A stretch of 64,000 nucleotides of DNA, taken from contig CAJINV010000014.1 of the NCBI GenBank assembly GCA_905178155.1, positions 902,116 through 966,115 on the forward strand, written 5' to 3'. Numbering within the stretch: the first letter of the stretch is position 1; each line of letters opens with the position of its first letter. Both the position numbers and the translations under genes were made by a program. Of this stretch, positions 539 to 62,626 are shown piece after piece. The notes beneath the pieces are model-generated. The model did not search any database. It saw only the letters and a program-made list of their open reading frames with translations, and had not been told where the DNA came from. Origin of the DNA: Amoebophrya sp. A120 (taxonomy: Eukaryota; Protista; Dinoflagellata).

Positions 539-1437
539 TCACCAAGTAAAGAAAAATGTTCCGAAATAGTAAAACCACATGTAGTTATGTACCACGAAGA
601 ACAGCGCTACGGGACGGAAGGTGTAAGCGGTGTTGCGGATGTATCAAATGCAAAAATGTCTGGGTCTGGAAGAGTCATGCTGTTTTTGCATGACACAGCA
701 GGTCTGGCATGGAAGCTCTAGCATCACAGGTTTCGCGAAGCTTCCGCAATGCCTAATCCGCATGACAGATCCCCCATTTTGGGGACAGAAAGTGGGCAGC
801 TTTTGCTACCTATGCATGAGAGATTTTTCTGTGTTTTGAAATGCGCATCACAAGTTTGTCTTCTTCCAGATCCAGACATTTTTGCATTTGATAGGATGAC
901 GCCCACGGCAATTTCCTTCCACGCGGTCAGCACCCACAGCATCGAGAACTCAAAAATCAGCCCCTTTTCACCAATCGTCTGGAGTAAGCTGGATTTGCAG
1001 CTTTCCTCGACTACTTTATTGCGGTTATTTGTTCCAGCGTGTGGGTCTGCTGCAACTATACCAGTTTCCGTATTCACAGCTCTACTGCTGCTCCCCGCCG
1101 GCGCGGCCAAAGCTTGGATGCTGTTTTGTTGAAAGTTCGTTGCCCGGCCACTTTCCTCCCCGCCAGAGACTTTCGTGGTCGAGAGGTTCTTGGTCGAGAA
1201 GCACCGAGCATTCGTTCGCGAGGAAACGAAGTGCTGCAGCAGCCGCGTCTGCCGGTGCAGGAAGCTGGTCGTCGCGTTCTGGTTGGTGGACACGAGGGAA
1301 GAACCGATTGAGGACAAACTGCTCGCATTTCTTTTCAGCGTCGTTGCGGCACAACTTTTCGTGGGAGAAAACCGCGGCGCCAGCATGCGGCCCTGCTGCA
1401 AACACCGGGAGGCCGTAGCCGACAGAGGCTGAAGCAT
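539..1437 (-). CDS. Hypothetical protein with a mitochondrial-presequence-like N-terminus and hydrophobic C-terminus; 2 exons
   Basis: ATG at 1437 (MLQPLSATASR, R/S/L-rich). Removing element 642-893 plus one GGATG gives ...AVGVI|RNTAYTFRPVALFFVVHNYMWFYYFGTFFFTW*, with the stop at 539-541. Confidence 0.7.
642..893. mobile_element. Introner, family A (TIR TATCAAATGCAAAAATGTCTGGGTCTGGAAG)
   Basis: About 30-bp TIRs; perfect GGATG direct repeat at 637-641 and 894-898. Confidence 0.95.
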
Positions 1438-2179
1438 CTTTTTGTACGTAGTTCCAAACAGTGCGACAGGATGAGAGTCAATTAAGCAGTAGTTCCAGGT
1501 GACTGAATGAGTTCGCTGTCCACACAACTGCAGCCACCCTGGAGGTTGTAAAACTACCACTTATGAGTCCGGCAAGAGGCCGCTCGGGACGAGATTTTCC
1601 TCTGTCGCAGTGACCACGTTTAATAGATACGGATTCTAGCTGCACACGACAGGTGAGCGTCGTGCCAAGAAAAACCACGTCTTTCTTGAGCGTCGATGCG
1701 ACGGACTTTGTTTCACTCAAGAAAAGGGAAGACGAGACAAAAAAAACCAAAGAAACGACAACCATCGGCACTACTATGTACCACACGTCTGCAGCTGCAC
1801 CGGGTGATGAAGTAAGATGTCTAGAAAAAGACGCAAAACTAAAAGCAACTTTCACGGCAGCTGCCCCGCCAGTAGATGACGAGGCGGACAAGATATTTAT
1901 TGAACAGCAGACAACCTGCAGAGGCAAACCATATGCAGCAAAAACAAAAAGTTGTCACTGCCATCATGCCTTCAAATCTCATTGCTGGTCGAGGGGAAAA
2001 GGACATGCGTTGTAGTCGAGGGACAACTGAAAAAATCATGTTTTTCTGAATGTTACCTCTGCGAGCTCCGGCGCGGGGGAGAGCAGCTGCAGCTTTTGCA
2101 GCTTGAACAACAACTAAATGCTAAACAAAGCAGTACTTCGCATCGTCCGTAGCTCCAACACAAAAAAGAAACCATGTTT

Positions 2180-5100
2180 CTATCTCTCCAGCGAGAATTG
2201 TTTGCACGGGAAGCAATTTTTCTGCCGCAACTTCTTCTCCAACCGGAGCAGCTGATGCGTCTGCTTCGCGGCAAACCGGACCTGCTCCTGGTGCAGGGGC
2301 CGGTAGTTCCAGTTTGAATTGCTGAAGTCTTGCTCGTCCGGCGCCGAATAGCCGCCCGTGCGCCCCGCGTAGGTATCGCTTATTCCATCTAGCCCAAACC
2401 TTTTCTGCAACATCTTCACGCTCGGGTATCCTGAGTAAAACCAAAAGCCACGAGGACGGGGCCCGAGAGCCAAGATAGCGCGTACCGTTCTGTTTTCATG
2501 CGCCACACAAACCAACAAGTTCTGCGTGTTGCGCATGAAGACTTTGGGCTCGATTTGTTGTCGAGCTTCGCTGGTGTGAGAGACACATGAGAAATCGAAA
2601 AGGAGGATGTTGCGGTTCTAGCATGCCACATTCTAAACTATCACTAGAAACTGCTTCTCATGGGACTGCGTCTGAGTAACATCTAAAAACATGCAGATTT
2701 CTTGCATGACCATTCTGGGGAGGAGGGAACGTTTTTACTCAGGATATCGGAGCTGCGTTGATCAGCAGGGACTGGGTTGTGCACGGCACTATCGAACGCA
2801 AACATGTCTAGGTCTAGAAGCGATTTGTAATACAAAAGTTCCTTACAGCTCGTCCCAGACAACTCTGTAAATATAGCATGTCACGCAATGCCACTGGTCC
2901 TTCCTCATGAAAAAACGTACCGGCTTCTCTTGCGCTTTACGAACCACACGATCGTCCAAGAGTGTCTCATCCTTAGCAAGCTCCTGAAGCTACTCTTTCT
3001 CTTTGTCATGCACGCATTGGCATGACGACTCTCCAGACCCAGACATATTTGCAATGCATGGGCCCAGTAGATGCGATATTAGTTTGATGATCGGCCACAA
3101 CCGCGGTAGCAGGACGCTGAGCAGATGTCCTAGGGCCTCTACTTGCTTCCCCCTTCACAGAAAGCAAGCCTTCCTGCGTCGCTTGCAGTGCCTTTGCCGC
3201 GACCAGATCTGCCTCTTCGGAGCTTGTGCGCAGATCCCCTTCCGGAACAAAGATTCGCTGGATCCGTTGGCCCTGCAAGTCAATCACACTCGAGAACTTG
3301 TTGCGCGCAGTTGCAAATCGCGACGCAGTGGAGGACTCACCTCCACCGTCTTGGTGCAGGTCCGGAAACGACGAGGTGTAGCTGTTTCCACGACTGCTGT
3401 GCCGGAAAAAGTTCCAGCGCAGCAAGAAGTTCCCGAACCCGAAGCACACCTTGGGCAACTTACGAATGTTATCAGTTGCTCCGGTCGTCCTCGTGGCTAC
3501 GGCAGTAGCAGCCGCTCCTGTTTTGGACAAAATCGCCCCCTGCATCACGTCTTTTTCGAAAACGTGCACCACCAGATCGGCGTAGAGTTGCGACTCCTGG
3601 TGGTTCAGCATGTCGAACAGGAAGCAGTGCCGCGGCGTGGCCACGGTCAGCACCGACATCGGGGAATCAAACGATGCTTGGTAGCCGAACGCCACGATGG
3701 GGAGGTGTTCAGAAGATGCGGCGCCTTGCAGCTCTCGATCTTCACCATCGTGTCGTTCTACTGTTCTTCTCCTATCCGCAAGAACCTGCGCGTGCTTCAG
3801 CCTGTCCCTTTCCCGAAGCTCCTCCTCGATGTCGGTCTGCAAGATCCGCCGCACCTCGGCCAGCTGGCGCGTATGAGATGGCACAACTAGTACTCCCCGT
3901 CAACCGTATACACAATTGGAAGGGCATGATCAACAGCGATAGAAACCCCAGTGAATATTAAGGACAAGGAGCCTGTGCCTGGCTCGGCACGAAATCAAGT
4001 TAATACTTTTACGCCTCCGTGTGTCCACCTACTGTTTGGCCTACTTCCACCGGACGAGATGAATTGTCAAGAACACTATCTACAACTACGCCAAAGGGCA
4101 GCTGCAACTGGATATTTTAGAATATCGACTGCCAAGAACTGTTTGAGCAGGGGAAGCAGGGGGACAAGTTGTGCACTCGGATAGCGCGCGGAATCGATCC
4201 AATAGATCCGGTCGTCGGAAAGAAACGAGGTGCTTGTGCTGCTTGAAGCCGTCTTCTCGGCCGCTTCCCCAGGACGCGTTTTCTCCGCAGTCTCGCTGCT
4301 GCACAAGGTGGAAGTAGATGTCGCATAGGTTGTTTGTGCTGGTGCTGGCTTAGAACGACTCTGCGAACACAAAAAGGGCGCGGCGTTTTCCCACGGTCGT
4401 AAACCCCATAAGAGCGCCGGCGGGGTATTACTACGTTTTCCATCGGGTGAATCAAGAAACCCCGCCTCAGTCGTTCCCGGCTGGTCGTGCAACTGCTGGC
4501 CCGTGGTCACACCTACGTCCACAGCGGTCGAAAACCCGTAGGGGATCTTGATTTCGCCGTCGGCGCCGTCGAGTAGGCGGAGCGAAACTTGACGCTTCCG
4601 ATCGTACGCTTCTAGCTGCCGTCGCTCCCGTTCGCACTCGTGGGAAATGAATGTCGGCGCGGCTCCCCCACTACTTCTTCCCGGCGTTGTCCACCGTCCT
4701 TTCCTACCGCAATCATTGCTACTGCTCGCCGACAACCCGAACCCGCTCGTGTCAATTACATCTTCGTCAGCATGCTGTGGCGCAGACGCTGGAGGGCACG
4801 ACCAGGAGGAGGACGGTTGAATATAATCTTCGGAGTGGCTGCTTGCAGGCGCAGTTCTTCTTCCCCCTGATGTGCACGACGACCTAGTAGGCTCCATCTG
4901 CCTCATGTCTCCGGCCGAAGAATCCTCGCGGACGTGCGTGGACGGCCAAGAGGGCAGCTGGAACAACGATTGTTCGGGTCGTATGCATCGGAAACATGTT
5001 TGGGTCTGGATCTGTGATGCGAAAGTTGAAGGACAAGAAGATCTACTGTGATGCTCGAACACGAGCCGCCAATTTTTTGTCGTGCTGGAAGCCAGCCTTT

Positions 5101-8100
5101 CGTACGTTTTACGATTACGATTACGAATGAATCTGCTTATAAAAAAGTTCGAGAAACTTGTGATGCTGTTTAGATACCACGCAAGCAGCTCCACCTCTTC
5201 GATGCGAGCAGCTGCACGCGGCAGCACCACAACTCTATTCCAGAGCCAGACCCAATCATGTTTGCAATGCATAGGTCCTCGTGCTGGTGGGGAGAGACCG
5301 ACACCACTAGTCATCTCGTGACGCACTGCTCGTGCTCTGACCGTGTCCTCGTTGGTTCCGCCTGTGGTCGTCTTGGTCGCCGTCGTTGACGTTGTCCTGT
5401 CGACACCGTGTATTGTCTGATTTTCGAAGAGAGAACCAAAAGTCGCCTGTTCCTGCAAAGGTTCGTCGTCAGCCAAGCGCGACTTTGTACCATGGTACTC
5501 CACCGGGTTAAGTCCCCTTGTACCAGGCGCGTCAAAATGGTCGTGCCCCCACGGTTTATGTGCTCCCTGCTCGCCCGCGCCAATGATCTTTCCAATCGTC
5601 GCTTTTGCCCAGGCCACGTGCACAACGCTTCCGGCAACGCCCCCTGCAGTGGGGTAGCCCGTGACAGGGCACCTCCGCGTGACGAGCGGCGAGGGCTCAG
5701 ACGCTTCTGTGTCCGCGCAGCCGCACATTTGCAGTGCCTCGGCCAGCAACGGAGAGGTGGAGTACAACGAGGGTATAGAAGTTCTTTGTGCATCTGCCAG
5801 AGCAGCCATTTTTGCGCTGTGATCGTGCTCGTGAAGAAAATCCTCAGTCGAAGCTTTTCCATCGAAAGAAACTGCCGTGATGTCATGAAACGCCACGTCC
5901 AGTCGCGTCACCTGCAAGAGGAAGTCCTTGAGCAAAAACTCGGATTTCAACTCTAGAATCCGCTCCAGAAACGTGCGCAAGGCGAACCGACTCCGGGGCA
6001 ACAAAGGACTGGAGAGGTGAAGATTTTGCGAGGACGGCGAAAGGCTGCTCTCGTCGTGTGCCACGTTGTTTGACGGCCGCGGCGCGGGAATCGTGGTAGT
6101 ACAGTGCCAGGACAAAGAACTCACTTTGAACGCAAACTGCATCGCCTGGGCCAAATTCGTCGGCTTTTCGTGCATATGGATTTCGCAATGTGTGTGGGTC
6201 TGGAACGGAGGAACTTCTTACGCTTGATTTCCATTTTTTCTGCAAAATCTGTACTGCATCAGCAGCACACGCGACTCTTGTGTTGTAATACGTACCATGC
6301 TATGTACGAAAAATACTACACTCGATAAAAAAACTAGTGACGCTTGACAGAATAACTTGGACGCGGTTCCATCCTCCAAGGCTCAACATCACAAGTTTCC
6401 GGACGAGGACCCAGACATCATATTTGTAACGCATAGTACAGGAGCTGATACAAAATGGCGTCGACTGTCTCCGTTTTGATACAACTAGCAGATGATCTGC
6501 GGGCCGCAGAAAATCTTGCCGCATGAAGTTCTTGTGTGCGCTCTTGTTCTTGGAACAGCCCCGGGTTTACTGTGCAAAAGTTGTAGCGCAATGGTACTAG
6601 TAGTGGCTACTCTCATGCGACATGACAACTTTCTTTTGCCGTACCTGACTCTCAGTTTGTCGACAAATTTCACTTTCCAAGAACTTGATGATCAAAAACT
6701 TGTGAGGTAGATAGTACATTTATCAATTTTCACCACCACCTAGTACCATGGCTATTACTTTTGCAAAATCCCGTACCGGAAAGCGCTCCACGATTTCCAG
6801 AAAGGTTTTCGTACCCGTCACCTTCCACACCAGGTCCCGGTCAATTGAGTTCTTCTTGCAGGGCTCCTCCACTTCTGGGCTGGAAGAAAGCGCCGAGAGG
6901 CCGGTGGTGAAAGAACTGTTGTTTAACCAGAAGTACCGAGCGATCGCGAAAAACAGCATCTCCCGGACCTTTTCGCGGCGAACCTTGCGCAACTTGGCGC
7001 ACGACCGATCCAGGATCACGGGGTTGAGGCAGGCAAAAAAGTACTCGCAGTTCGGTTTCTTAGCGTGGACGGCGAACAAGGAGCTGCACAGCTGGTAAAT
7101 ATCGGAGTTGAACTTCTGCAATTTTTCCTCGTTGGGGTGGTTCAAGTAGGCGAATCCGTGCAACCGGTACATGATCCCAAACCTGTCGTAACCCGTGCCC
7201 CCATCGAAGACGTCCAAACAGTGGTAGATGAGGTTCGCAGCGATGTCGACCACCCGCCTCTCCTGGCACAGCTCGAGGATTAGCTCGGGCAAGGGAATGT
7301 TCAGTTCCTTGGGGTACATCTGCCTCTCCGAGGTTTGCAAATACCGCTCCAGCTGCTTCTGCTCGGAGAGCAGTGCTGGTGCGTAGTAGTGGTCACCGAA
7401 CGTCGGAAAGACGGGATTCGGATGCGTTCTTCGTGTGTCCGCAGTAGACGCAGACGAGGTACTGGCAACCGCACTGCAAACAACGCCACTCGATGAGGCG
7501 GAAGAACAAAACTTTCGGCTTTGCCGCTGCTGCGCGTGAGAAAGGCGATCCTTCGATGTGAAACGAGCAGGAGGAGGTCCTGTGGCAAACACGCCCAAGA
7601 AAACTGCAGCAACACCCGCTGCATCGACGTCGGAGGAAAAAAGAAAAGGCTTATCGCTCCTAATGACAACAACAGTCGCCTCTTGGGTCGTTGCTCCTGC
7701 GCTATGGTTTTTCCAGGGCCCGCGCAGCTGCCGGTGGTGCGGCCGGAGCGGGGGAATGGGCGGGGCGACCGTCGGCAAAGCTGGTGTCGGTGTCCATATT
7801 GCTGGTATAATTCCTGTGACGTTGTTTCCACCTGGAACAATACCCGCGGCCTTCGTGGACGTGCTGGGCCCACACAGCGAACACCGAGTAGTGCAAGACG
7901 AAGAAACAGAAGTGGACATCACTCGAGCGTGCATTTTCACTTTTTCGTTGTACTTACCCACTTTGAAGTGCAACTTTACGGGTTCTGTCCAATTCTTTAA
8001 AGTGCTTCTTGTTTGGCCGCGCAGATCCTCCACTTCTCCCTGCTTTAGGATCTTGTGCCATTAACCGATTATAGTGCTCGTCCTCTGTGTCTACTTATGA

Positions 8101-9438: not shown

Positions 9439-12400
9439 TTACTCTAGAAGACACTTCCTAGCTGCATCGCAAGTCTTTCTATCCAGCCATCTTCCCATGC
9501 AAAAGAACTCGCCTGTTGTCCGGCCATTGACGTAGTACGCTACTTTTGCCTTGGGTAGTGCAGTATCGATCGCAAATCCGGCTGGGTTTGGAAATTTGTA
9601 TTGCTGTACTTCCGTTGCAAACTGATCGCACGTACGGCATAACGGCATGAGAAGTTTTCCTCAGCAGCTTCTGGCGCATTCATTCCTGAATAAGTAGCAT
9701 GACAAAGTTGCGCCTTCCCGCACGACCCTATCCACGCACACAGTAGATCTGGTTATCACGACGCGAGTCTTGCATCACACACCCAAACCCAGATATGTTT
9801 GCATATGCAGTTATTTTGGCAGTTGTAGACGGAAAAGACGTCGTCAGACACCTGGTACTTGAACTATGGTATGCGGTTGGAAAAAGTATTTGTCATGCAG
9901 AGCTAGCACGGTGGAGAAGGAGAACCTGCATCGTGCGAGCTCTGCATGACAAACTCTCTTTTAAGCCCGTACCTTCGTCCTTCAACTTGTCCAGGATGAG
10001 TCCTGCGCTATAGCAAGAAAAAAACTGCGCTTGTGTGACTTTGGTTTGTGTTTGTGATGCGGGACAAATAAGCAACCCGCATGTTGCATTTGTCATGCTA
10101 GTCCTAGTGGACAACCTTGATAGTAGCTTCGCCTCATCGTCAGATGAAACTGCTTCCTGCACTAGCAGCTCCGCAAGACAAATTTAGGTTTTTTCTGTCA
10201 AGACCGGCTGAATTTGCGATGCTGTCAGTCCAAGGAATTCGAATTCACCCTAACGCAGTTTTTTCTTCTGGATATTCGTCCGAGGGCTTGTATTGCGTTA
10301 TTCGCATGTCGATGTACCTTCATTTTCATTTCGGATAAGTACTTGGACACACTTACTCGTTGCAAATAATAAATGAATCCAGCGTGAGTAATAGGTTTTT
10401 TTTCTCATGCGCGTTATCATACGATGGCCATATCGTATGCAAAAATCCTGGTAGTTTTAAACCATAACAGCACCTCTGCGTCTGCGTGGCGGCGTCTGGC
10501 ACCCTGGCACAGCCGTTCATTTTCATCTGGGGCGTCGCGTTTTCGTTGTAGGCCCCTGCGATTCCGGTCTCTATCCGCACGTTGTACCCCAGCTGGCAGA
10601 GCAACGATTGCTCCAGGTTTTTCTTCAAGTAGTAGGCTAGCCGCTCCTCGTTGCCGCACGTCACATCAGTGTACTGGTAACAGGTATGCATTGCAGATAC
10701 GTCTGGGTCTGGCAAACAAGAATTGATTGCCATGCTAATGATCCATGGATGACGAATTTTTGTGCAGTTCTGTCGTGCGTTAAGGCGCATGAGGCTGCAT
10801 AAAGGTGGAGCAGTGCTATTCCGAGACATGCGACGCAAAATTGCACTGCAGTATGGTGCAAGTTTAGCGTCACAAGTCATGCCCATATAAGAGGTCTGGA
10901 ACACAAGCAAAGCATTACAGGTTTTGCGAAGCCGAAGGCCTCTTAATGCCGACCCCGCATACAGAAAAATTCGCAATTTGTGTAGCGAAAAGCAGGCAGC
11001 ACTCTGCACTCATGCAATACAGATTTTTCATTGTTCGGTCGAGATTTCGCATCGCAAGTTGGAACTCTACTTCCAGACCCGGACATAGTTCTACAAGGCG
11101 TAACAAGTCTGAATAAACCACGTCCCCACCACCGAACCGAGTGCCGCACCCCCACCGCCGGTAGCTCCTAGGACGCCCCGCGTATCCACTGCAAATATCA
11201 TGTCTGTGTCTGGAACAAAGGTCGTTGCACTTGCAATGCTTGTCTTGCGCATGGTCGGGAAAATAAATGGGGAAAAAAATTGTCGTGCACGGCTGCAATG
11301 AGAAATACTTACTTATCTACTCAATTATGGTCCGCAAGTCGGCGTCACAGGAGGTTTCCAGACCACGTCTCGGGATTATTATATTTGCAGTGGATACTGC
11401 GACGCCCACAACGAAACCGGCAACGAAGGTAACGTCGACTCCCCCGCGTCCTGGCCGAAGCCCGAAACCGGGCACCCGCCCGTGCAGTTGTGCGTCAAGG
11501 GGAGATACCAGTCTTCGAAAACATTCACCTGCGGCCCGTTCTGGAGCTGTTTCGCGTTGTAGAAGGAATAAGACGCGCATGGAAGGAGAATAAAGAGTGT
11601 GTCTTCATCGTGTATCTTTCCAGTTTTGATTCATACTCGGCGCACAGCATTACAACACTGTTTGGCAGGAAAGCGAAATAAACGCGCCGGAGCGGCAACG
11701 GACCCTGCAACCAATACCTGATCAGCATGAATGAATTATGTAGCAACGTCCCTCGACGAGCCTCGTCAGGCAGCCGATCGCTCATCCCCCGACGTACGTC
11801 GCCAGCCTACCAGCATGATAGACGCAACTGTCTTGCATACTTCGCATCACAGACCTACAGATAGTAACACACCAGTTTCTTTCTGCATACCGTGCGCTGT
11901 CGAACGAGACCAGTAACGGACGACGCCTTTAGTTCCAGGCGCTATCGCGAGAAAAAACTGTCGCGGTATCTCTGGTGTCATGCTCGACATGCAAGAACAT
12001 CAAAAAGGGGCCTGTAATCATTATCTGTAAAAAGGACTATGTGTTTTCTCTTTTTGCTCCTGCTTGGACCATCCACTTCCTTATACAGAGAGTTTTCTCT
12101 ATCCTGCTTCGAGAATCATTTGTGTAGCTGAGTCTGCAGAGTACGCTTGAGTTTGAGACAGTTTTTTTCCCGGGATAGAGGTTTCTCTTCCTGCAGTTGC
12201 AGCGTCATCACCTGCTGCAGTAAAGACTCGGGAGTGAGAATTGCCTCGAGCTCACGGCTATGCATCGCAACCACATCAGAGTCTGGAGGGAAGGGTGGAT
12301 GAACTACTTGTGAGGTAGATGCTTGTCGTGCATTCCTGCACCGTCCCTCCTGCATCACTAGCAAAAGCGTAGCTTTAACAAATACTCCTTGTCGTGTGGT

Positions 12401-16994: not shown

Positions 16995-17299
16995 AGGTGG
17001 ATCGCGGGAAACGGTGGTCCGTCATGTGTTGATATTGCAATTGCTTACGCCGTGGCTGTATAGTACGACGGAATGTACCCGGCGAAGGCTTCAACGTCAT
17101 CATACTTACTTCTACTTATTGATTCCACTAGTTTTATTTGCACCAACTCGTACTTACACACGTGCATCGACTCCACAACGTTCCATTTTTAAGAATGGGG
17201 GAGCTCCAGTACTAGTGCGCAATAGCAATTTGTAACTCTCCTGATGTAACGCAGTTCCTTGTGGTCTTTGCTGTGGTTACACATCATACGGCTCGGATA

Positions 17300-51200: not shown

Positions 51201-53719
51201 CTTTTTCGACACCGCGCGAATTGGTTTCTCCGGAATCAGGCACGCGGACCCGAAATCCGCGATTTTTAGCAGGCCGTCCTTGTGTAGCAGTAAATTTGAG
51301 GGCTTCAAATCCCTGTGCATCACCTTCCGATTCACGTGCAGCTCTTGCAGTCCATTCAACAGTTGGAACGTCAAGCGTTTCACTTGGGATTCGGACAGTT
51401 TGACACCTTCCGGGGTCCTTGTCGGGTGCATTGGTGGTGATGTACAAGTTATGCATTGCAAAAGTATCGCAGTAGTAGTATCAATCGCATCACAAAAGAA
51501 GCTCATCTCAGAAGAAACAATAGAATTTGCAAAAATGCTGACTTACGACCTAAGGCTAAGATCACAATTTTGCCATGCATAACTGCAAGATGAATTCAAG
51601 TACTCAGTAGGGGTAGTACAACGACACTTTATTTGCACAGGATACTACAACTCCCCAAGTTGCTGAAGATTTCCCCCGGCGCGTTCAGGACCTGGTAGAG
51701 ATCCATTTCGCAGAATTCGTACACGAGGTAGTAGCACGGCTGCTGCGGACTGCGGAAATGCGACAACATTTTCACGATATTGGGGTGCTGATTCATCTCT
51801 CCTTCCACGTGTTTCAGCATGGGATTCAAGTTGCTGCCGAAGATTATGGATTGTAAAAATGTCTGGGTCTGGAAGATTGCAACTTGTCATGCTAAATCCG
51901 AATCATGCGGAAATCTGTGTTGCATGAGTGCCAAAAGCTGTACCCTTTTGACCAAGTTGAGAGGGAGTTTCTCACGCAGGAAAGGCATGATAGAGACCTC
52001 AAAGAATCTGTCATGCTGGGTCTCGTATTCCAGACCTCATGGGTCATGGAAAAGCTGCATGACAAATCGCGCATTCTTCCAGACCCAGACATTTTTACAC
52101 TTGATAAAGATCTGGCTCGTGCAATCCAACACGTTGTGGATGAACATATCCTCCTCGTTATCATTTGCAAAAACGTCCCCACCCCGTAGTTGTAATGCAA
52201 TTCTGCATGCTGAAGATGTTTCTCATGCGGAGTTCCATGCGAAGCATTTTCTAGCTGTGTTTCGGAATTTGTCATGCTCCAATCAGCATGATGTGCTGGA
52301 TCTGTGATGCTCGTAAAGTAGCTAAATACGATTACACTACGAGACCAAATCTCTCATGCGCAACAGCCAAGCCCTGTGGATTTGTCTAGCAGATTGCCCA
52401 TCTTGACTATGGGGTGGGGACGTTTTTTTACACAGGATACTCATTGTTCCCACGACCAGTTGCACCACCCCCACCCAAGGGGCTGCACTGCGGTACCATG
52501 ATAGCGCCGGCGCCCAGGTACTCTTCCAGTGTCAGATTCAGATTTTCCAACTCCATCCGTGCGCCTTCATACACGACCTGCTGCGTTCTGGCGTTGAAGA
52601 AACTCGCGTCGGCGCTGGCGCCGCAGAAAAACTGCCGCTGCTCGTTGTCCGCGACGGCGAGCTGGCTTCTTCTGGATGAAGATGACGACAACTCCGGGTT
52701 GTAGTTCTTGGCACCAGAAGTACTATTTCTGTAAGACCCGCTGCCATTGTTTCGCGAGGAAGATGGGCTGCTGTTTTTTTCGCCCGACGGATTTTTATGC
52801 TGATCTCTGTGGTCACCAGAATGAAGACTCTCAGTTGTACTACTGGAGGAGCTCGAGTTCCGCTGGCTACCGCTTGTGCAATACAAATTTGCCGTACACA
52901 AAATAGACAAGCCTCCAACGCGTTTACAAGTAACAAACTCCGTCAACCTAAATAATTCGATATGGCTGCGAGAAGTTTCTTTTTGTCGTGCAGCGATTGC
53001 ATATGCATTTGTAGTTGTGCATGGTCGTGTACGGCAACAGATTTGCAGTGGATACCGTTTGCGGTGGTGCTCGAAGCTGTCGAACTGTCACCCGTCACGC
53101 CCGAAGATGATCCCACGACCCCGAATAGCAACTCGTCCGCGTTTGTTTGCGATTTCACCGCTGCGGGGTCGTAGAACTCTAGCTCACGGAGAATCGATTT
53201 CGTCCAGGCGTCCGTGGCTTCCAGCACAATTCGACCCGTCACTGGGCAGAGTATGAATGGCAAAAAATGATCTCGGTCTCGTCTCGTTCATGCGAAACTT
53301 GTAGTAGGTGTAGAGCCAGATCTACTGTGAAGATGCATTTTTGCCACCAGCTTTTTTGTCGTGCTCAAGTCAAAAAATGCGACCTTTTCATCAATCAGTA
53401 CGAATGGAGATGAACCTGCAACTGCACACAAATAAGCCCTCCCATGCTGCTACTTAGTTCTAGGCCGTACAATAAATAACGCTCTACTACTAGCATTGTG
53501 CAACAATCAGACCAGCAAGTCTTGCTGGTCTGATTGTTGCAATCGACCTTTCATCCAGACTGAGATCATTTTTTTGCATTTGATACACACGCGCCGCGCG
53601 CAATCCCGGTAGTACACTTCCTTGATGGCCACGTAATCCTGCGTGTCCTTCGTAACCGCCTTCGACACCGAGCCGAACCGGCCCTCGCTGATGTGACCGA
53701 CGTGCTCGTAACGATGCAT
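48241..53719 (-). CDS. CDK-family Ser/Thr kinase, CDK20/CCRK-like, with large insertions; 7 introner introns
   Basis: [65 protein letters not shown] and [15 protein letters not shown]. All 7 junctions are in frame. Confidence 0.88.
49471..49792. mobile_element. Introner, family D (TIR TATCGWAAGGAAAAATCCCCCCTCCCCATAT)
   Basis: Perfect ATATC DR; removal gives QFIDI|PAPP. Confidence 0.95.
50354..50620. mobile_element. Introner, family E-like
   Basis: TATGCAAGGAAAAAAGTG...CACTTTTTTCTTTGCATA; DR CTGCT/CCGCT. Confidence 0.88.
51450..51647. mobile_element. Introner, family F (degenerate)
   Basis: Left TIR TATGCATTGCAAAAGTATCG; DR CAAGT/CAACT; removal gives LGSC|TSPP. Confidence 0.7.
51845..52106. 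mobile_element. Introner, family A
   Basis: Perfect AAGAT DR. Confidence 0.95.
52159..52439. mobile_element. Introner, family B
   Basis: AAAAACGTCCCCACCCC...GGGGTGGGGACGTTTTT; DR CTCGT/CTCAT. Confidence 0.88.
52875..53054. mobile_element. Introner, family H-like
   Basis: TTGCCGTACAC/GTGTACGGCAA inverted pair; DR CCGCT/CCGTT. Confidence 0.8.
53252..53585. mobile_element. Introner, family A (degenerate)
   Basis: DR CAGAG/CACAC; removal gives RRVC|PVTG. Confidence 0.75.
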
Positions 53720-54611: not shown

Positions 54612-57600
54612 TCAGCTGCCCTGGCCCTGCAGCGAGTGTTTCACCTGAAACAAGAAGTCAATCTCGTGCTGTTTCAGCACTTGGTTCTGGTCAAACGCGG
54701 CCACCAGTGGCGCACATCGCTCGTTCGTGGATTTTTTGTACTGGAGCGCCGTTTCCTCGGCAGTCATGGCCTCGTCTCGCGTGTTTGTCAACTCCAACAC
54801 CGTCGCGTTGATTGCGTTGGACTCGGTCACGAGCGATACTTTCTGCTTCTCGATCGCAAATTTCTGGTTCGACAGTTGCTCCTTCTCCTTCCGGTAGTTC
54901 GTTTTCACGTCGTTCAGCCTGTCTAATCCGTCCGACACGCTCGCTTCCACTTCGGACAGCATGGTCTGCAGCAAGACCACAATGCTGCCCCCGGACTCGT
55001 GCTTCTCGTACGGATTTGCCTTCTCGGGTCGCTCCACCTTCGGCAACCCACTAGGGTACGTTTCGTTCCTCGCCGACAAGGAGGAAAGGGATTTTTGTAA
55101 GAACAGCACCGGAACGCTCATCCCGTAGAACCGCTGCAGTTGGTCGATGGCGGACTGAATCACCTGTAAATGCAGTTGTTTCCGTCTGGAAACCTGCAAA
55201 AATTGAAATGCACGCTTCCCCATGAGATACTACGCACTTCAATTTCAATTTCAATACCCCTCCAGGCATGACAAATCTTAATCTTTTGTGAAGGGTGCAC
55301 TTTCGCTTTTCGAAGTCCGCAATACAAGCTTGCATTATTCCAGAAGACCGAGACAAATTTGCAGGTGATAGATTGGATAAACTTGCTCGACTCTTGGTCG
55401 TCTTTGATTTTCGCCTTCACCGTTTCGATCTCCTCGACCTTCGCCTGCTCCAAGTTCGCAAATTCAAATATATCAATGCCAAACATGTAGTAGTCTGCGC
55501 ATCATGGAGGTGTAATGTTCGTCTCTTGAAACGAACTTCAGTAGCACAACTTAATACCCAAGCACGACAATGTTTTTGAAGGCGGGTACTGCATCATGCG
55601 TAAACAGTTTTGAGAAGTAGGAATCGCCCCCCTTGTCTTGCATGACACTACTAAGCCAACATACGGCACTCCTGACGCACTTCATGCATCACAGATTTTG
55701 GCTCGTCCATGCGAAATATTCATCTTCCACACGACCCAGACTGAAAAATATGTTTGCAGTTGATAGACCTCCAGCTCGTGCAACTCGACGTCTGCGTTCA
55801 GGATTTTCTCGGGGAAGGTGATCGCGACACCGGATTGCAAGTCCAATTCGCCCTGGACGGTGTCGTACTCATGACTCTTCTCGGTCAGTTGCAAACTGGC
55901 CTCCTGCTGCTCCTTCAGGCACTCGTCTTTCTGTTCCACTTCCTCCTGTTTTTCCTTTTTCATCTCCGCGATCCTTCCGTCGATTTTGTCCAAAATGAGA
56001 CTGGTTGCGGCGGCAAGCTCCGGCGACTGTTTTGACGTGATCAGTTGCTTCAATTGGACCATTGCCTTCATTATCAAATGTGAAAGTGTCTGGGTCTGGA
56101 AGATTGGAACTTGTCATGCTAAATCTGAATCATGTAAAAATCTGTGTTGCGTCATTACCAAAAGCTGTCCACTAATCGAGAGGCAGTGTCTCATGCAGAA
56201 TAGGCATGATAGAACTCTCACAGCATCTGTCATGCTATGTCCTACATGGCAGACCTCATGGGTCATGGAAAACCTGCATGACAAGGACAACGCTTGCATT
56301 CATCCAGACCCAGACATTTTTGCATTTGATATTCATCGTGTTGACTTTTCGCCGGATCACTTTGTTCAGGACGGATTTCGGGGACGTGAGCAGCTCCAGT
56401 TTAAAATTGTTGTTCTCTCGGCGGTTATGCTGAGGAACCGTCGGGCGAAAACTCCTTCCAGCGTTCTTCTCCTTCTGCTTCCTGTTTTTCATCTTCTCTT
56501 GCTCCATCATGGCGTCTATGTATTGCAAAAGTGTCTGGGTCTGGAAAGTTGGAACTTGTTATTGCAAGGAAAAATCCCCCCTCCGCATATCAAAACGGAA
56601 ATCTGTGATGCAGATTTGTTGTCACAAATCAGCTTTGTCATGCTACACGGGAAAAGATGCGGACTGTAGTGCTGGGTGGCGTGGGGGAGCCTTGCATCTT
56701 CAGCATGATAGGAGGCAGCTGAGAGTGGGAAACAGCATGACAAATTGCCTGCAAACGAGACCACGACTGCGGCTCTTGGCCTTCTAGTATGGCAAGTCGA
56801 TTTGGTGCCTCAAATTCTGCATCACAGATTTCCATTTCGATATGGGGAGGGGGGATTTTTCCGTTTGATACTTGTGATGCTACCTTTGGAACCCGGAACC
56901 TTTGGACTCTACATAAAATCTGTATTGCATGAAAAGCATAAGAGAGGCAATTTGTGCTACGCGGAGAGGGCTTTTCTCATGCGGTATGAGCATCGTGAAG
57001 CCCTCGCAGAGTCTCTGATGCTAGGGCATGCATCACAGACCTCATGGGTCATGGAAAATCTGCATGACAAACTTCTGCACTCTTCCAGACCCAGACATAT
57101 TTGCATTTGATAGCGTCCAACGAATTCGCGTCTTCGTCGTCCGAAAATTTCAAACTTTTCAACTTCAAAATCGGAGAAGCTAGGGACGACTTCTTGGCGG
57201 ATGCTTCTGTTCTTGAAGTACTAGTAGATCCACTAATAGGAGACGCCGCTCGCCCGCCTTTCGTTGTCGCTAAACCAGCCGCGCCCGCTTCCTCTACTGT
57301 TCCACTACCCGCCTTCGCCGCAGCCCGTGCTCGTCCACGACCAGCTGCATCCTCTTCAACCGGAACGGGAACGGAAGTACTAGCACCGGTTGTTCTTTGA
57401 AAAATTTTCCGCTTTTTATCCACAAGCTGGCTTGATGTTTTTCGCCGTTTGAACAACGATTCTCCAGCACGACGAGCTGCAGAAGCTTTGGTCATCTGCG
57501 ACGCTCTTGTCGAGGTCGCGGACCCGTCGTGCTTCGACGCAAACAGCGTGAACGCGCTGCTACTTCCTGTTGGTACAACGGTTGTAGTGTTGGTCCCGCT

Positions 57601-60600
57601 GCTCCCGCCCATTAACCGTTCCAAAGTGGCGTCCAACGCCGCAACTTCCTGCTCCCGTGCCGTGACCCGCGTGTCGTACTCTTCGCTCTGGAGTTGACAG
57701 GTCACCTCTAGCTCGTGCAACGTCTTCTTCGCCTCTTCCAACACATCGCCGGACTTTCCCAGCTGATTTTCCACCTGCAACAGCTGCAAACTGTTGGTCG
57801 ACAGTTCCTGCTTCTTCTGGGAAATAGAGTCGTCGGTGGCGGAGATTTCTTCCGTTTTCTTCTCCTTCAACGACGAAAATTCCGTTTTCTTGTGCGTCAA
57901 ATCGGCCCTGGTTTTTTCCAAGTCTTTGGTAAAAGTCTCCTGCATGGAGGACAGGATCCCGAACACCTTCTGGGTTCCGGCAGATTGGAATTCCGTGCGG
58001 GATGTCGGCGGCGCGGGGATCTGGTGGTCCTTCAAAATCTGCAGCAGTTGCGGCTTCATTGATAACGATGTTGGAGGACCGGCTTGATTTTGCATGATCT
58101 GCTCTTTGTCTTTACCTTGTGGAACAAGCGTGTTTGTAATTTTCGTGTCGGAAATAACGCCTGCTGGAATCGTTCTTACAGATGAAGTCGGAGAAGTTCC
58201 AAACAGAAACTGCTGCAGAACGTCGAACACCCTCGACAAGGTCAGACTGCGCACGTCACTCGCCGGTAAAACCACCCCCTCGTCGATGAAAGAAGAAGTT
58301 GTTGCACTCCCACTGTTATCAAATGTAAAACTGTCTGGGTCTGGAAACTTGTAATGCTGAGATGTGAGTAGTAAGTGCTCTGTAGTGCACAACCAAGCAT
58401 GAGAAATATTTGCGGGGCTACAGTGTTGCGCTTTTCGCATAACAAACTGCGTTTTTGCATGACAAGCAAAGGGGTCTCTTCTTGGACACGCATTACAGAC
58501 TTTTCAGTCATGCTAGACAAGCATGACAAACCTTGCATCCTTCCAGACCCAGACATTTTTGCAATCCATAACTGTGCTTTCCCAGAATCACCAAAGCGCC
58601 ATTTAGCGCGCCGATCGACTCGACGAGGTCCTTATCGAATGCAAATATGTCTGGGTCTGCGAGGTTGCATCAACTTGCGATGCTGTCTTTGGAAGGTAAA
58701 AAAAATCTGTATTGCATGACCAACAAGAGGAGTTCAGTTTGTGCTACGCGGAGTGTGCATAATTTCTCATGCGGAATACGCATCAGAAGGACCTTCAAAA
58801 ATCTGTGATGCTAGGACATGCATTTCAGGCATCATGGGTTATGCAAAATGTGCATGAAAAACCTGGCAATCTTCCAGATCCGGACATGTTTGCAATGCAT
58901 AGTCCTGCTCCAGCTCCTGCTTTTCCGCCAGTTCCTTCTCGCATCCTGTGCAAAAGTATCGCACTCGTACAAATGCAAGTCTTGCATTACAAATCTTGTT
59001 TCCAAGGCAAACCTGCGTTACAAATTCGATTTCTCATGCTGGGGAAATTTATAATGCATTTATACGAGTACGATACTTTTGCAATGCATATCTCGAAAAC
59101 CTCCACCAATTGCTTCAAGGAGGCTTGCATCTCCGCCGAATCCGCGGTCAAATTTTCGATGTCCATTTCCAAAGCCGCGATGGTCCCGGTGAGCCCAGCT
59201 TTTTCCTCTAACAATTTCTCCTTGTCGGAATTCTCGATCTGAAACTTGGCTTCGTTCTTCTCCGTTTCGCAGTAGTTCTGGAATTTCGCGAACCAGTCAG
59301 CGTCGTTATCCACGTCTTGCTCCACCTCCTGCCTGACTTTCTCCAGTAACGTGATGACCTTCGCGATCGGCTCGGCCGGCGGGTCTTGGACTGCGACTTG
59401 ACTCGCGGTTCCTTCCGTTTTCTTCTGGTAAACGAAAAATTGGTTCCTCTTTTGCAGCTGCCGCAAGAAGACTTCCTGTTCCGCAAGGGACGTAGTACCT
59501 TGTTGGAACAGAGATTTTTTTACCTTCCTTTTCATCTTCGGAGCGAGTCCCCGAGCACGGCTGGTAGAGGATGAAGTAGAAATGAATTCCTTGCCACTTT
59601 TGACCTTCTCCGTCACGACTTGAATTTGCCGTTTCCGCTCCCGTTCAAACTCGTCCGCGAGGTCGTCGTCGTGGAAATCGCTAGAAGTTGTAATAGCTCT
59701 CTGGTCTTTGCTTGTTTCGCTGGTTTGTTCCTTTATTTCCGCATGTTGCAACCTGTTCGACAAGCGGCCGTTCTTCGAATTACTATTTCCCGTCTGCACC
59801 AACGTCGCTGCTGTAGCACTATTGCTGCCCATCGTCGCCGCCTGGGAGCTGGCCAGTTGCAACGCGCTCTTCAAGGATTCCAGCAACTGATCCCGCTTCA
59901 ACTTCCGTGCCTCGTAGGACTCCGCCACGTTGCACATACGCGTGCTGTTGGTCAACTTGTTTTCCGCGGCCGTGACCTTCTGCGCCGCCCACGGCTCGTG
60001 GTGGTCTTCGTTGATCTTCAGCAAAGTTCCGCTCGCCCACATGGTTTCGTTCTTCAAAATAATCTCCTGCTGCATCGCCGTCTTGGTCGCCAGCTCGTTC
60101 GCGTGCAGTTCCCCGTAGTTTTTCAAGTCCAGTTGCAGCTGGTTTTCCGTGTTGGTCACCGTGTTGCTCATGTCGGTTTCCACCACTTCCAGCATGGCGA
60201 TCGCGTTCTGGATGGCGGAATTTTGCGCCAGTTCCGGGCGGTCCAGTTCCAAAAGCGCGGACTCCAGAATCGGGATCGCCTCCTGCGCCTCCGCCAACTG
60301 CTTCTCGTTCAAAATGTTGGACTCTACGAAAGTTTGGTTGTGCTTGTCCATGCTGGCCTGGACCTTCGCCAAATCCACTTTCTCGTCCTCGATGTCCTGC
60401 CACATCTCCGCCACCTCTCCGTGCAACTTCTGGTTCGTGGTCTGGTACCACTTCAGAATGCCCGCGGCGGAGTGCAGCGTTTGCGCGTCGGATTTCAGCA
60501 TCTGGTCGCACATCTGCTGTGCCTTCATGTCCTCGATGTTCTCCTGTTTCAGTTTCAAGATGAGGTTTTTCACCAAGTTCACGACTTTCAGCATGGAAGT

Positions 60601-62626
60601 GGAAACGTAGGAGCTCGTGCTGTCCTGATCAGGATTCTGCTTCAATTGTTCTGTCGAAGCCGTAGAAGATGATCTGCTGCTTCTAAACAGCTGCTTCCTC
60701 GCTTCCCGTAGTTGCTCAGAAATCATAAACGTAGTCGACTTGATGTTCATCCTCTGGGTCGTGGAAGCGGCTGCGCTAGAACTACTTTGCGCATCGGTGG
60801 TCATTTGATGTTCCCCAGATATCGACGCCGTCGCCAACCGCATCGCCTGCGTTTGCGCGTGCTCCAAAACCCGTTTCAAGGAATCGCCGTGTTCTGCTCC
60901 TTCTTGCAAACTATGCATTGCAAAAGCATCGACGCACTTGGACCACGTACAAATCTAAATCATTTGTTGTGAAAAAGATAAAAATTCTGAAGCAATCTGC
61001 ACCGCTGATTCAGATACTTAATCACAACGAGTTCTACACGATAGACCTCAAGATGAGCTTTTGCCGTTGATACAAGAACATCATCGCAGCTGTTGCCATC
61101 GCACTGCTTTTCAGCACGTTCACCGCGGACGCACAGGCGGAAATCTGCATTTTCAAGTCCTTTTCCAGCTCCAGGAATTCCTTCTTCTTCGCGTCAATCT
61201 CATTCCCCAGAGAAACGATAAGCGACCCGGACGAGTCGGAGTACTCTTGTGCCGTCTTGATCGCGTCCGTTTTCTCGGTGACAATCGCCGCCTTTTCCGA
61301 TTTCTCCTCGTCTATCTTCGTCAGCCGCGTGTATCAACTGCAAAAATGTCTGGGTCTGGAAACTTGTGATGCAAGTCAGGGAAAAATGCGCATACTGTAA
61401 TGCACTGCCAAGCATGACAAGTTTTTCCGTGGTTCAGAGTTGAATACTCTGCATGAGAAACTGCGTTTTCGCATGACAGGCAAGAGAAGCCCTTTGCGGC
61501 CATGCAATTCAGAGCTCAAAGTCATGCCGGACTAGCATGACAAATCCCGGAATCTTCCAGACCCAGACATTTTTGCATTTGATAGCGTGTCACACCGGTC
61601 AATCTCGGACTGGAGCAGTGATTGTTTCTCGTCGTAGGTCGTAACCGCGGTCTTCTCCTCGGTATTGAGCTCCTCGAGTTCCTGCATGGCCTGCGTTTCC
61701 AGCTCCTCGATCATTTGCTTCAAATCCTCGACACTGCTGGCTTTCGTTAGCGATTTTTTGGAGGATTTCTTCTCGGATAGACCTCCGCGAGTTGATGTTG
61801 TTGTTTCCAAAATCATCTCCACCGCTGCGCTGTGCTGCTTGGCTTCTTCTGTGCTGGAAGTATAAGTCCTCGTGTCTGTCTGCAAAAAGGACACCGCATT
61901 GCTGCTCATCGCCGTCCCGCTTTCCTGCAATTTCATCGCTAACACGTCAAATTGGTCCAACGCGGTCCTCACCGCCTTCGAAAACTCCTCGTTTTTTGTG
62001 AGCACCTCGCGGTATTCACCGTGCTCCTTCTTCCGCTCCGCTTCGTTCTCCGCGTGGATCTTCTTGCTCTCCCGCAGCTCCGTTTGCAGCAGGCTGTCCT
62101 CTTCCGCCAACTTCTCCAGATCGTTCTCCGCGGTCGCCTTCTCTGCCGAGGCAGTCACCAAAGTGGTTTCCGCGTCCGTGTAAATCTGGTTCTGTTCCGA
62201 CAACGACGTCCCCAGGGTCTGCTGCTCCTGCCGGTGAAATGTGGTCCGTTCGGTGAGGTCCGCGGCGGCTTTTTTCCCGATGCCGTCCAGAATCTCGATC
62301 ACCTTCTGGACCATGGCGTTCTTCTGGAGCACAACAAGACCACCTCCGTGCTGCTGCTGCTGCTGCTGCTGCCGCTGCCGAACAGCGGTCGTCGAACTGC
62401 TGCTGCGGGAAGATTCGTCTGCATTTAGAAGTTGATGCAGTTGCAGTTTATGTTCCGCAGCTTCCATGCGCCCTTGCCTTTTCTCCACTACCAGGACAGC
62501 GGTTGCCGGCACTATTACAGCATTGAAGTCCAGCAGTATAGTAGCCGTCGAAAAGATCGCTGCAAGAACTACCCTTGCTGCCAATGGGCAGCGAAGGGAG
62601 GAGAATCGTAAAACGGAAAGCCACAT
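54612..62626 (-). CDS. Large repetitive coiled-coil protein with a putative signal peptide; 9 introner introns
   Basis: Hydrophobic N-terminus, then repeated units beginning MVQKVIEIL / MLKVVNLV / PIAKVITLL with FLQ-like motifs. All introner junctions are in frame. ATG at 62626, stop at 54612. Confidence 0.8.
55158..55370. mobile_element. Introner, H/A-like (degenerate)
   Basis: ATCACCTGTAAAT...ATTTGCAGGTGATA; DR GACTG/GATTG; removal gives KFIQS|AIDQ. Confidence 0.75.
55471..55765. mobile_element. Introner, family A (degenerate; DR lost)
   Basis: Removing the element plus 5 bp gives HELEV|EFANLEQ. Confidence 0.65.
56072..56331. mobile_element. Introner, family A
   Basis: Perfect TTCAT DR. 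Confidence 0.95.
56517..57112. mobile_element. Introner, family A, hosting a nested family D element
   Basis: Perfect GCGTC DR; removal gives SLDA|MMEQ. Confidence 0.93.
56560..56870. mobile_element. Nested introner, family D
   Basis: D-type TIRs; perfect CTTGT DR inside the family A sequence. Confidence 0.93.
58317..58570. mobile_element. Introner, family A
   Basis: Perfect ACTGT DR. Confidence 0.95.
58633..58901. mobile_element. Introner, family A
   Basis: Perfect GTCCT DR. Confidence 0.93.
58942..59090. mobile_element. Introner, family F (TIR ..TGCAAAAGTATCGYACTCGTA)
   Basis: Perfect TCTCG DR; 149 bp. Confidence 0.9.
60912..61072. mobile_element. Introner, family F (degenerate)
   Basis: DR CAAAC/CAAGA; removal gives MMFL|QEGA. 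Confidence 0.72.
61332..61584. mobile_element. Introner, family A
   Basis: Perfect GCGTG DR; removal gives CDT|RLTKI. Confidence 0.95.
62349..62371 (-). repeat. (CAG)7 coding microsatellite (polyQ)
   Basis: Tandem CTG on the + strand. Confidence 0.9.

Follow-up and report, generated by a model that had tools for sequence, protein, structure and literature searches.

Dozens of transposon-like introns, from families that otherwise have little sequence in common, share one 9-base near-palindrome, set at constant distances inside both termini, in a 64,000-nt stretch of the Amoebophrya sp. A120 genome (the window; contig CAJINV010000014.1, positions 902,116 to 966,115), and this is likely to be a DNA site for copying rather than a splicing signal. 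Sequence comparison suggests that a single mobilising machinery, shared by the families, probably binds the motif in double-stranded DNA; this machinery would most probably be a Ginger- or integrase-like transposase acting in trans. The original prediction, made from the letters of the window, had offered a common protein-binding site, belonging either to a transposase or to a dedicated splicing factor, or else short internal stems. Fixed end geometry, conservation and constraint on shared variants support a putative transposase-subterminal site.

Elements that carry the motif

The motif-bearing elements have TAT...ATA ends and 5-bp target-site duplications (TSDs). They are 120–330 bp long and non-coding, and have the features of MITEs: they are short and multicopy, with terminal inverted repeats (TIRs), a fixed TSD and no coding capacity. 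Calls made by TIR symmetry give an end logo of T.94, A.96 and T.97, with A at.73–.92 at positions 11–15. The window elements carry the introner inverted-repeat (IR) signature of TAT, seven variable nucleotides and at least three A; the full A-run is missing in four families. Starts are TAT in 437 of 459 elements and TGT in four, with a calling profile that favours TAT. Among 40 window elements, the 5-bp TSD is exact in 23 and has at most one mismatch in 31, while other lengths are exact in 0–1 (6 bp in none); 327 of 459 elements overall have a 5-bp TSD. There are 24 families of 3–67 copies each, with median lengths of 149–322 nt, and 11 of them can be aligned to each other. The consensus set holds 28 families in 15 groups, drawn from the window and 138 related loci. 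No orthologous non-element stretch joins these loci to the window: the longest match is 637 nt, and all matches lie over elements. Summed DNA contig depth reaches 1.6e5 over elements, compared with about 27 elsewhere. CpG is depleted in the elements (0.77), and TG and CA are enriched (1.36 and 1.34). Searches of viral contigs with the TIR pattern and of the window against Rfam gave no matches.

A-type elements include a copy of family F5 at 642..893 (TSD GGATG) and an older one at 4982..5273 (TSD 4/5; three exact sites in a single orientation). The A1 subtype is found at 30551..30810 (F0), 33005..33267 (reverse orientation, TSD TGTTT), 35066..35327 (AGTAC), 39787..40029 (TCTCG; a segment of the right TIR is deleted), 45258..45526 (reverse orientation, GTCAT; adjoining a GT-AG intron) and 58633..58901 (GTCCT). 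A further A1 copy, at 56517..57112 (GCGTC), is split at its first site by a nested C-type element of family F15 (56560..56870, TSD CTTGT). Subtype A2 lies at 16430..16691 (F1; left end TGT, TSD TTGCC), 51845..52106 (F1; AAGAT) and 56072..56331 (TTCAT), and A3 at 58317..58570 (F16; ACTGT) and 61332..61584 (F9; GCGTG). The B family is represented by 13554..13862 (F18; AGTTG, four exact sites) and 30185..30490 (TAATA), and the C family by 49471..49792 (F3; ATATC), which has degenerate sites only. The D-family element at 34725..35031 (GTTGG) has no A-run. E-family copies of F7 lie at 22394..22677 (TCCTT, three exact sites) and 52159..52439, an E-like element with a TGT left end at 30896..31209 (AACTC; exact sites in a single orientation), and an E-type element of F4 at 31995..32292 (TGACT), with four profile sites of which none is exact. 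G-type elements occupy 10009..10274 (TSD 3/5, two exact sites) and 40795..41009 (F8; TCGTT, four exact sites). The H-type element at 58942..59090 (F2; TCTCG) is 149 nt long and has TGTAATGC-type sites.

Identity and enrichment of the motif

TGTCATG occurs 63 times in the window and TGTGATG 47 times, where a second-order Markov model predicts 8.2 and 8.0, and the pair rank within the top four enriched 7-mers. Strand-wise counts of TGTCATG, TGTGATG, CATGACA and CATCACA are 26, 26, 37 and 21. The enrichment is real. Thirty-nine elements, called by TIR symmetry alone with no use of the motif, cover 17% of the window and contain 83 of its 110 exact sites (7.6/kb, versus 0.5/kb outside; p 3e-41); a wider set of 59 elements contains 95. 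Recurrence was as described in the five elements singled out originally, which have five (30551..30810), three (30185..30490), five (34725..35031), four (56560..56870) and three (30896..31209) exact sites. Both orientations are used, as had been noted, and without strand bias (44 versus 51 of the 95). TGTSATGC reaches 9.5/kb in the 459 called elements but only 0.12/kb in a long-ORF exon proxy, with four matches in 24.6 kb behind GTRAGT donors. Outside masked elements 143 TGTSATGC sites are left (0.33/kb), and these count against a mobiliser site; 73 of them are clustered at most 150 nt apart, as uncalled elements would be. The predicted form TGT(C/G)ATG is enriched but too narrow, since its fourth position accepts A, C or G and almost never T. 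The full motif is a 9-bp pseudo-palindrome, T-G-Y-N-W-N-R-C-A, a symmetric consensus obtained by EM with which inward logos agree.

Site geometry relative to the ends

A first site is present at all 56 ends of the 28 family consensuses. Its centre lies 37–38 nt (18 ends), 45–51 nt (35) or 58–60 nt (three) from the terminus, and at no end 39–44 or 52–57 nt away. These distances give R=0.81 at a period of 10.5; helical phasing is no more than suggestive, given the 7-nt span of the middle cluster and a possible remote common origin of the families. Counted over 24 families, the first site falls within 36–52 nt at 47 of 48 ends, and a second lies 31–33 nt further inward at 31. With one family per non-alignable group (22 ends), the figures are 21.5 versus 6.2 for the first site and 12 versus 2.1 for the second. 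Four extra families, found without the end profile or the motif, have first sites at 38/38, 47/47, 48/47 and 58/59 nt.

Individual elements illustrate this arrangement. In 642..893 (site centres 691, 724, 749, 763, 817 and 848), first sites lie 50 and 46 nt from the ends and second sites at +33 and +31. Sites are 49 and 81 nt from both ends of 56560..56870; in 34725..35031 the first sites are 47 nt from both ends and the second at 79; in 30185..30490 the first sites are at 49 and 48 nt and the second at 80, and in 61332..61584 the first sites are at 38 and 47 nt. Site centres of 30551..30810 are 30595, 30626, 30660, 30678, 30717, 30732 and 30764. Its left first site (30591..30599, + strand, TGTGATGCT) is centred 45 nt from the end, and its free position varies (G>C) between copies in the genome. 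The left second site (30622..30630, + strand, TGTATTGCA type) lies 31 nt inward, and its first eight letters are identical in all seven of seven A1 copies. The right first site (30760..30768, − strand, TGTCATGCA read inward) is centred 47 nt from the end.

The spacing originally given as about 30 bp proves to be 31–33 bp, with 31 such pairs against 7.7 expected in 60 window elements, and 10 against 2.9 with one copy per family; the 33 window singletons have only 2 against 1.6. The sites do not form a regular 32-nt lattice, there being no excess at 62–66 or 94–98, and spacings between all pairs of sites have no 10.5-nt periodicity. Steps of 14, 18 and 36 nt occur too. Left and right distances are often unequal within an element (37 versus 49). 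Exact near-end sites in the window point inward in 36 of 40 cases; strict inward polarity was rejected, as one end points outward in G- and H-type families.

Conservation and decay

Core site columns diverge 2–4 times less than their neighbours. Column conservation, proposed as a check on the motif, is clear in 245 perfect-TSD copies, where divergence is 0.033 at first-site GY/RC, 0.067 at inner sites and 0.131 in the rest of the interior. Site G/C columns change in 6.2% of cases, and non-CpG G/C columns elsewhere in 19.3%. Variants common to several copies bear most of the constraint: singleton and shared alleles number 92:36 at sites versus 746:696 elsewhere (odds ratio 2.4, p 1e-5), and shared alleles per column 0.08 versus 0.63. 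At first-site GY/RC, private changes run at 0.014 against a background of 0.035, about 2.4-fold lower, so some constraint after insertion is possible. Among genome copies the GY/RC columns carry one of 40 variants against 4.5 expected, a weak deficit (p 0.05).

Sites are lost as the duplications erode. Window ends with a site fall from 39 of 52 at perfect TSD to 8 of 36 at TSD ≤3, and orphan ends from 77 of 92 to 12 of 40, where shuffled sequence gives 2–3%. Sites in old orphans are still at about 10 times the shuffled level. The claim that motifs persist in eroded copies is thus upheld against shuffled sequence, but not as full retention. Divergence binned by TSD is too noisy for dating this loss, since the TSD ≤3 bin also takes in misaligned ends.

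Proposed mechanism

The following steps would explain these features. (i) A dimeric DNA-binding domain would read the half-sites TGY and RCA. (ii) Steps of about 10–11 nt would hold this domain on one helix face relative to the TAT cut. (iii) The site at +31–33 would bring in a cooperative second dimer. (iv) Only copies that keep their sites would multiply, the sites being free to erode after insertion. (v) Excision from RNA of the element and one copy of the 5-nt duplication would rely on a terminal hairpin and the TAT...ATA ends, and not on the sites.

Alternative explanations

A host DNA-binding or chromatin protein might bind the site instead, either as a cofactor of transposition or as a protecting or silencing mark. 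This is unlikely, but it would accommodate the recurrence of one site in 15 groups with TIRs that have hardly more than TAT in common, the residual sites outside called elements, the reduced private changes at first sites and, in the available part of the genome paper, the report of no A120 transposase (Farhat et al. 2021, PMC7789003). It sits poorly with site densities close to background both in the exon proxy and downstream of canonical donors, with the element-like clustering of 73 of the 143 residual sites, and with a fixed distance to the cut end, which a transposition complex would be expected to need.

Removal from RNA bears on whether a dedicated non-canonical splicing factor reads the motif in pre-mRNA, in either insertion orientation. 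The evidence comes from contigs of one sample that are RNA-like, their RNA status being a guess, and covers elements up to position 46900. By length arithmetic on these contigs, four elements (32719..32927, 33005..33267, 33365..33656 and 45258..45526), which lack GT-AG ends, are removed with exactly 5 nt each. RNA-like contigs also start at 32293, next to 31995..32292, and one piece ends at 35328, next to 35066..35327. Reading frame is restored on the minus strand at 44 of 55 element junctions, versus 26–32 in other frames. Two of the removed elements are old: 32719..32927 has a TSD of 3/5, and 33365..33656 a degraded TSD and no A-run. Neither has a site of at least 7 bits (best scores 6.8 and 6.7), yet both are removed exactly (165=165 nt). 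These two, with the lack of strand bias, tell against the splicing factor entertained in the original prediction, as do the threefold drop in site content, as TSDs decay, among elements that break up reading frames and the bias of constraint towards shared variants. A pseudo-palindrome would be readable on both strands, U1 is reported as not found in Amoebophrya, and the lower singleton rate at first sites and the excess of sites in old orphans would also fit such a factor, which we consider somewhat less likely than a host DNA-binding protein.

It is improbable that the repeats act by pairing with each other to form a compact hairpin, whether in the intron RNA or in a single-stranded DNA intermediate. 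Folding predictions are compatible with such pairing in part: site bases are more paired than neighbours (0.73 versus 0.59), site–site pairs account for 0.60 of all pairing by sites, at 0.23 of the length, the left first site pairs with the right one at >0.5 in 18 of 48 strand-consensuses, and folding of the interiors is stronger than that of dinucleotide shuffles (z −3.7). An earlier z of −7.7 was discarded as inflated by TIR bases, and interior-only controls were used instead. With sites held fixed the interiors still beat shuffles (z −2.7), so the extra folding is not caused by the sites. Covariation, the proposed check on internal stems, weighs against them, with three compensatory and 130 breaking cells in 212 site–site pairs, compared with 137 compensatory cells in 505 TIR pairs. 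Only 8 of 24 families, roughly what chance would give, have the same base at the free position of the left and the right first site; end distances are often unequal, and several elements have all their exact sites in a single orientation.

That the motif is a functionless relic inherited from a single ancestor, or a stable product left behind by CpG decay, is largely refuted and very improbable: the alignability of 11 of 24 families and the CpG and TG/CA composition of the elements would suit it, but site G/C columns change far less than other non-CpG G/C columns, shared alleles are scarce at sites, and the sites hold their position in 15 groups that were found separately or have flanks that do not align.

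Relation to known introners and transposons

The window elements appear to match published A120-type introners. Those described by Farhat et al. 2021 (PMC7789003) have an IR of TAT, seven variable nucleotides and an A-run, a mean length of 240 nt, direct repeats of 3–5 nt, non-GT-AG ends and many families. Family lengths of 149, 209, 252, 262, 279, 305 and 322 nt match A120 families in supplement 8 of Gozashti et al. 2025 (PMC12130899), in a comparison covering rows 1–41 of its 58 A120 rows. The available part of PMC7789003 describes inverted and direct repeats only; the present elements have a sharply defined 5-bp duplication and, in every family, even those without the A-run, an internal site of fixed geometry. 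That paper argues against transposase-mediated mobilisation, set aside because no A120 transposase was found, and treats both the mobility of these introners and their splicing in the absence of U1 and GT-AG ends as open questions.

A120 family 38 is classed as Ginger with '5-bp TSD, TA/TA Termini' (PMC12130899, supplement 8). It shares with the elements here a TIR-type DNA structure, the 5-bp TSD and TA termini; it differs in being 808–810 bp long with an ORF homologous to part of an integrase-type transposase, where these are short and non-coding. TDD-4/5 (Ginger2/TDD) make 5-bp TSDs, GingerRoot and IS3EU end in TA..TA or sometimes TG..CA, and IS481EU ends in TNT..AYA (PMC2836005, PMC6839031, PMC10045372). 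The present ends are TAT..ATA, rarely TGT. No superfamily listed in the available parts of these sources combines TAT ends with a 5-bp TSD. Ginger2/TDD agree in their 4- or 5-bp TSD and differ in their TGTNR termini; IS3EU and GingerRoot agree in TA..TA termini and differ in a 6-bp TSD (0/40 here).

Short repeated motifs inside the ends, bound cooperatively besides the termini, are known from the Emigrant MITE and its Lemi1 transposase (PMC1636448) and from the end arrays of Tn7, Tn5053 and Tn552 (PMC8649781). The present motif is likewise repeated, conserved and fixed in place inside both ends. As described in the available parts of those sources, each such motif is specific to a single element family, with Tn7-type repeats of about 20 bp. 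The 9-bp pseudo-palindrome, a putative binding site, instead recurs in at least 15 groups that differ in their TIR bodies, and the elements that carry it serve as introns as well. The literature searched contained no report of subterminal binding arrays for these introners.

A Pfam search covering 29 window ORFs and 110 of the 144 long locus ORFs gave no integrase or transposase match, which counts against the proposed transposase. No autonomous long element was found among the 12 long TIR pairs listed; five of these, set beside the consensuses, proved to be ordinary elements carrying inserts. A cognate autonomous element was likewise absent from the window and 581 kb of loci, a small part of the ~115-Mb genome.

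Implications

Present in every family at defined distances from the termini, the site offers a bait for the mobiliser and a signature by which to recognise the autonomous element. With the copying signal separable from the splicing signal, splicing studies can be directed at the TAT ends and terminal hairpin. More tentatively, the thousands of A120-type introner families might all belong to one mobile system with a two-part code, one part for copying and the other for removal from RNA; we hold this broader idea as possible but somewhat doubtful. A universal TAT end and a helically phased TGY-NWN-RCA would license any sequence for a single integrase-like enzyme, and a freely co-evolving terminal hairpin would make the element removable from RNA. 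If so, differences in TIR body between families would not reflect different transposases, and a fragment of any kind would become a self-propagating, self-removing intron once it had gained both signals.

Shared site inside the introners

The heptamers TGTCATG and TGTGATG, with their complements, occur 110 times in the window. Counting both strands, there are 63 copies of TGTCATG (8.2 expected) and 47 of TGTGATG (8.0 expected), and these words and their versions shifted by one base head the 7-mer ranking. Window elements were called by terminal symmetry only, independently of the motif; 39 of them, covering 17% of the window, contain 83 of the 110 sites (p = 3e-41), and an expanded set of 59 contains 95. 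The five elements quoted in the original prediction (30185-30490, 30551-30810, 30896-31209, 34725-35031 and 56560-56870) were all verified. EM on 60 window element interiors yields a symmetric consensus, G(.88) Y N W N R C(.86) with T and A flanks, whose commonest form is TGT(C/G)ATG. Read inward, first sites (those nearest a terminus) are T(.92) G(.96) Y (A/C/G) W T R C(.97); before them stand an A-rich stretch and a pair of pyrimidines. The motif is real. TGTSATGC reaches 9.5 per kb in called elements, against 0.12 per kb (14 in 121 kb) in a long-ORF exon proxy and four copies in 24.6 kb behind GTRAGT donors. Further masking leaves 143 sites over 438 kb, with 73 in clusters, and these sites may belong to uncalled elements. 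A small inverted repeat at 9881-9961 (36-nt arms, 9-nt loop) surrounds two TGTCATGC sites and has no called TAT..ATA partner.

The introners themselves are already known, and their family lengths agree with those of A120 families in supplement 8 of PMC12130899, making Amoebophrya the probable host. They start with TAT and end with ATA, most with an A-run at positions 11–15. Exact 5-bp flanking duplications (TSDs) occur at 23 of 40 window elements; other lengths from 2 to 9 account for at most one each. On the minus strand, 44 of 55 junctions have an open frame running 40 codons or more to either side once the element and 5 nt are taken out, compared with 26–32 in the other two minus-strand frames and 21–30 on the plus strand. 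Elements are skipped in contigs of runs X3 and X4, which derive from one sample and whose RNA status is a guess. From the end of one set of pieces at 32713 to the start of the next at 33658, these contigs contain 165 nt, the exact remainder once 32719-32927, 33005-33267 and 33365-33656, each together with 5 nt, are removed; a second gap agrees (61 = 61) on removal of 45258-45526 plus a GT-AG intron. The DNA run X1, possibly the source of the window, extends into elements, over which its summed depth reaches 1.6e5. CpG is depleted within elements (0.77), not outside (1.07).

A protein kinase domain (49660-51542, minus strand; Pkinase 73-151 and 154-195) is divided between exons by element 50354-50620 and further sequence. 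An exon of a C5 cytosine DNA methylase and exons of RNA polymerase Rpb1 occur amid elements at loci outside the window (L011:2-1090, L054:1117-5080). The C-type element 56560-56870 (TSD CTTGT) sits in the first site of the A1 element 56517-57112, an intron within an intron whose insertion duplicated the first letters of that site. In another A1 element, L054:5001-5972, an insert of roughly 690 nt resembles a non-LTR retro-insertion: it has an A-rich tract at its end and a long flanking duplication that spans the first site.

Position relative to the element ends

In a metagenome collection, one pattern for the terminal inverted repeat (TIR) matched at least 138 loci of a public assembly, 581 kb in all; its A-type seed skews the sample toward loci with young A copies. 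Calling independent of motif and TSD gave 459 elements (null, 0), 327 with a perfect 5-bp TSD, including 24 families of 3–67 copies. In the 24 consensuses the first site is centred 36–52 nt from the terminus at 47 of 48 ends, and a further site follows 31–33 nt inward at 31. Masking of sites and ends leaves 11 groups of families that do not align with one another, though they may be remotely related. Taking one family per group, first sites occupy 21.5 of 22 ends (6.2 expected) and second sites 12 (2.1 expected). A profile-free search added 33 elements (two duplicates), 32 with a site; 29 of them form four families that differ in TIR body and have first sites at 38/38, 47/47, 48/47 and 58/59.

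Across 56 ends, distances fall at 37–38 (18 ends), 45–51 (35) and 58–60 nt (three), with none at 39–44 or 52–57. Their resultant at period 10.5 is 0.81, equalled in none of 5000 uniform draws. Three clusters constrain the period loosely, and the middle cluster spans 7 nt. All-pair site spacing has no periodicity, with peaks at 14, 18, 31–32 and 36. The sole invariant of all consensus ends is TAT. In seven families (F2, F8, F11, F12, F14, F19 and F20) the 31–33-nt pair is replaced at one end by an outward-pointing series in 18-nt steps (e.g. 49, 67, 85), which suggests left/right asymmetry. The sequence TATGCATTGCAAA recurs at many ends across different families, frequently in older copies (in the window, for example, 10685, 13902, 31359, 51450, 58901, 59090 and 60912). 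Their terminus positions 3–11 match TGY-NWN-RCA, so the end itself may be a degenerate site.

Conservation and age

Site columns are conserved. In leave-one-out comparisons of window families, private changes number 56 of 627 at site columns and 346 of 1961 at other non-CpG columns (p = 4e-8); at G/C columns alone the rates are 6.2% and 19.3%. A second set comprised 334 copies chosen by interior homology with sites masked. Among the 245 with a perfect TSD, the core GY/RC columns of first sites diverge from consensus by 0.033, compared with 0.067 for inner sites and 0.131 for the remaining columns. In eight families of 16–34 copies, singleton to shared alleles number 92:36 at GY/RC and 746:696 elsewhere (OR 2.4, p = 1e-5). 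At first sites shared alleles are reduced about 8-fold and singletons about 2-fold, as would be seen if copies had to keep the site in order to multiply; the residual singleton reduction could stem from unsampled lineage history or host constraint. In orphan elements with a perfect TSD, a first site is retained at 77 of 92 ends; the count is 25 of 44 with TSD 4 and 12 of 40 with TSD of 3 or less (shuffled level, 2–3%), a loss with age broadly inside the simulated neutral-decay range. The corresponding window counts are 39/52, 17/30 and 8/36.

A putative landing site

The site is probably the landing site of a shared mobiliser. A dimeric protein would bind it on double-stranded DNA in register with the cut end, and a second dimer would bind three turns further inward. 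TA/TG ends and 4–6-bp TSDs point to integrase-like transposases; PMC12130899 classes A120 family 38 as Ginger, '5-bp TSD, TA/TA Termini', with integrase-related homology. Transposase-bound subterminal arrays have been described in the Emigrant MITE (PMC1636448) and in Tn7-like elements (PMC8649781). The predicted protein-binding role is favoured by conserved sites at fixed distances from the ends, but Pfam searches of 29 window ORFs and 110 of 144 long locus ORFs detected no integrase or transposase. That the bound protein is instead a host DNA-binding factor is unlikely.

Reading of the site in RNA by a splicing factor, also predicted, is slightly less likely still. RNA-like contigs include element removal without a site: two of four exactly removed elements lack both an exact motif and any site scoring above 7 bits. 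Removal occurs for copies of both orientations, and within elements the exact sites favour neither strand (44 versus 51). The proposal that sites pair with one another as stems is improbable. Predicted pairing is higher at sites than at their neighbours, often site with site, as would follow from repeats of a near-palindrome; but in consensus folds of 12 families, both strands, 212 site–site pairs give three compensatory and 130 breaking cells, against 137 compensatory cells in 505 TIR pairs. Only 8 of 24 families have the same base at the free position (the variable A/C/G base) of left and right first sites, close to the chance level estimated from the logo. Interior folding remains stronger than in shuffles that preserve the sites (z = -2.7), for which long imperfect inverted repeats are the only account offered. 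A relic is very improbable, and the contrast at non-CpG and G/C-only columns shows that CpG decay does not account for the conservation.

An internal motif is not mentioned for these introners in the literature covered: section 16, the supplement text and further passages of the genome paper (PMC7789003, Farhat et al. 2021); passages of PMC12130899 together with 12 of its 14 supplementary files; and passages of the review PMC11282704.

The co-evolving part of the elements is the TIR. Within families left and right TIRs change together (137 two-sided changes), even though positions 4–10 vary more than any other part of the element. Such co-evolution is consistent with a terminal hairpin or with symmetric recognition of the ends, and bears on the splicing signal of these introns.
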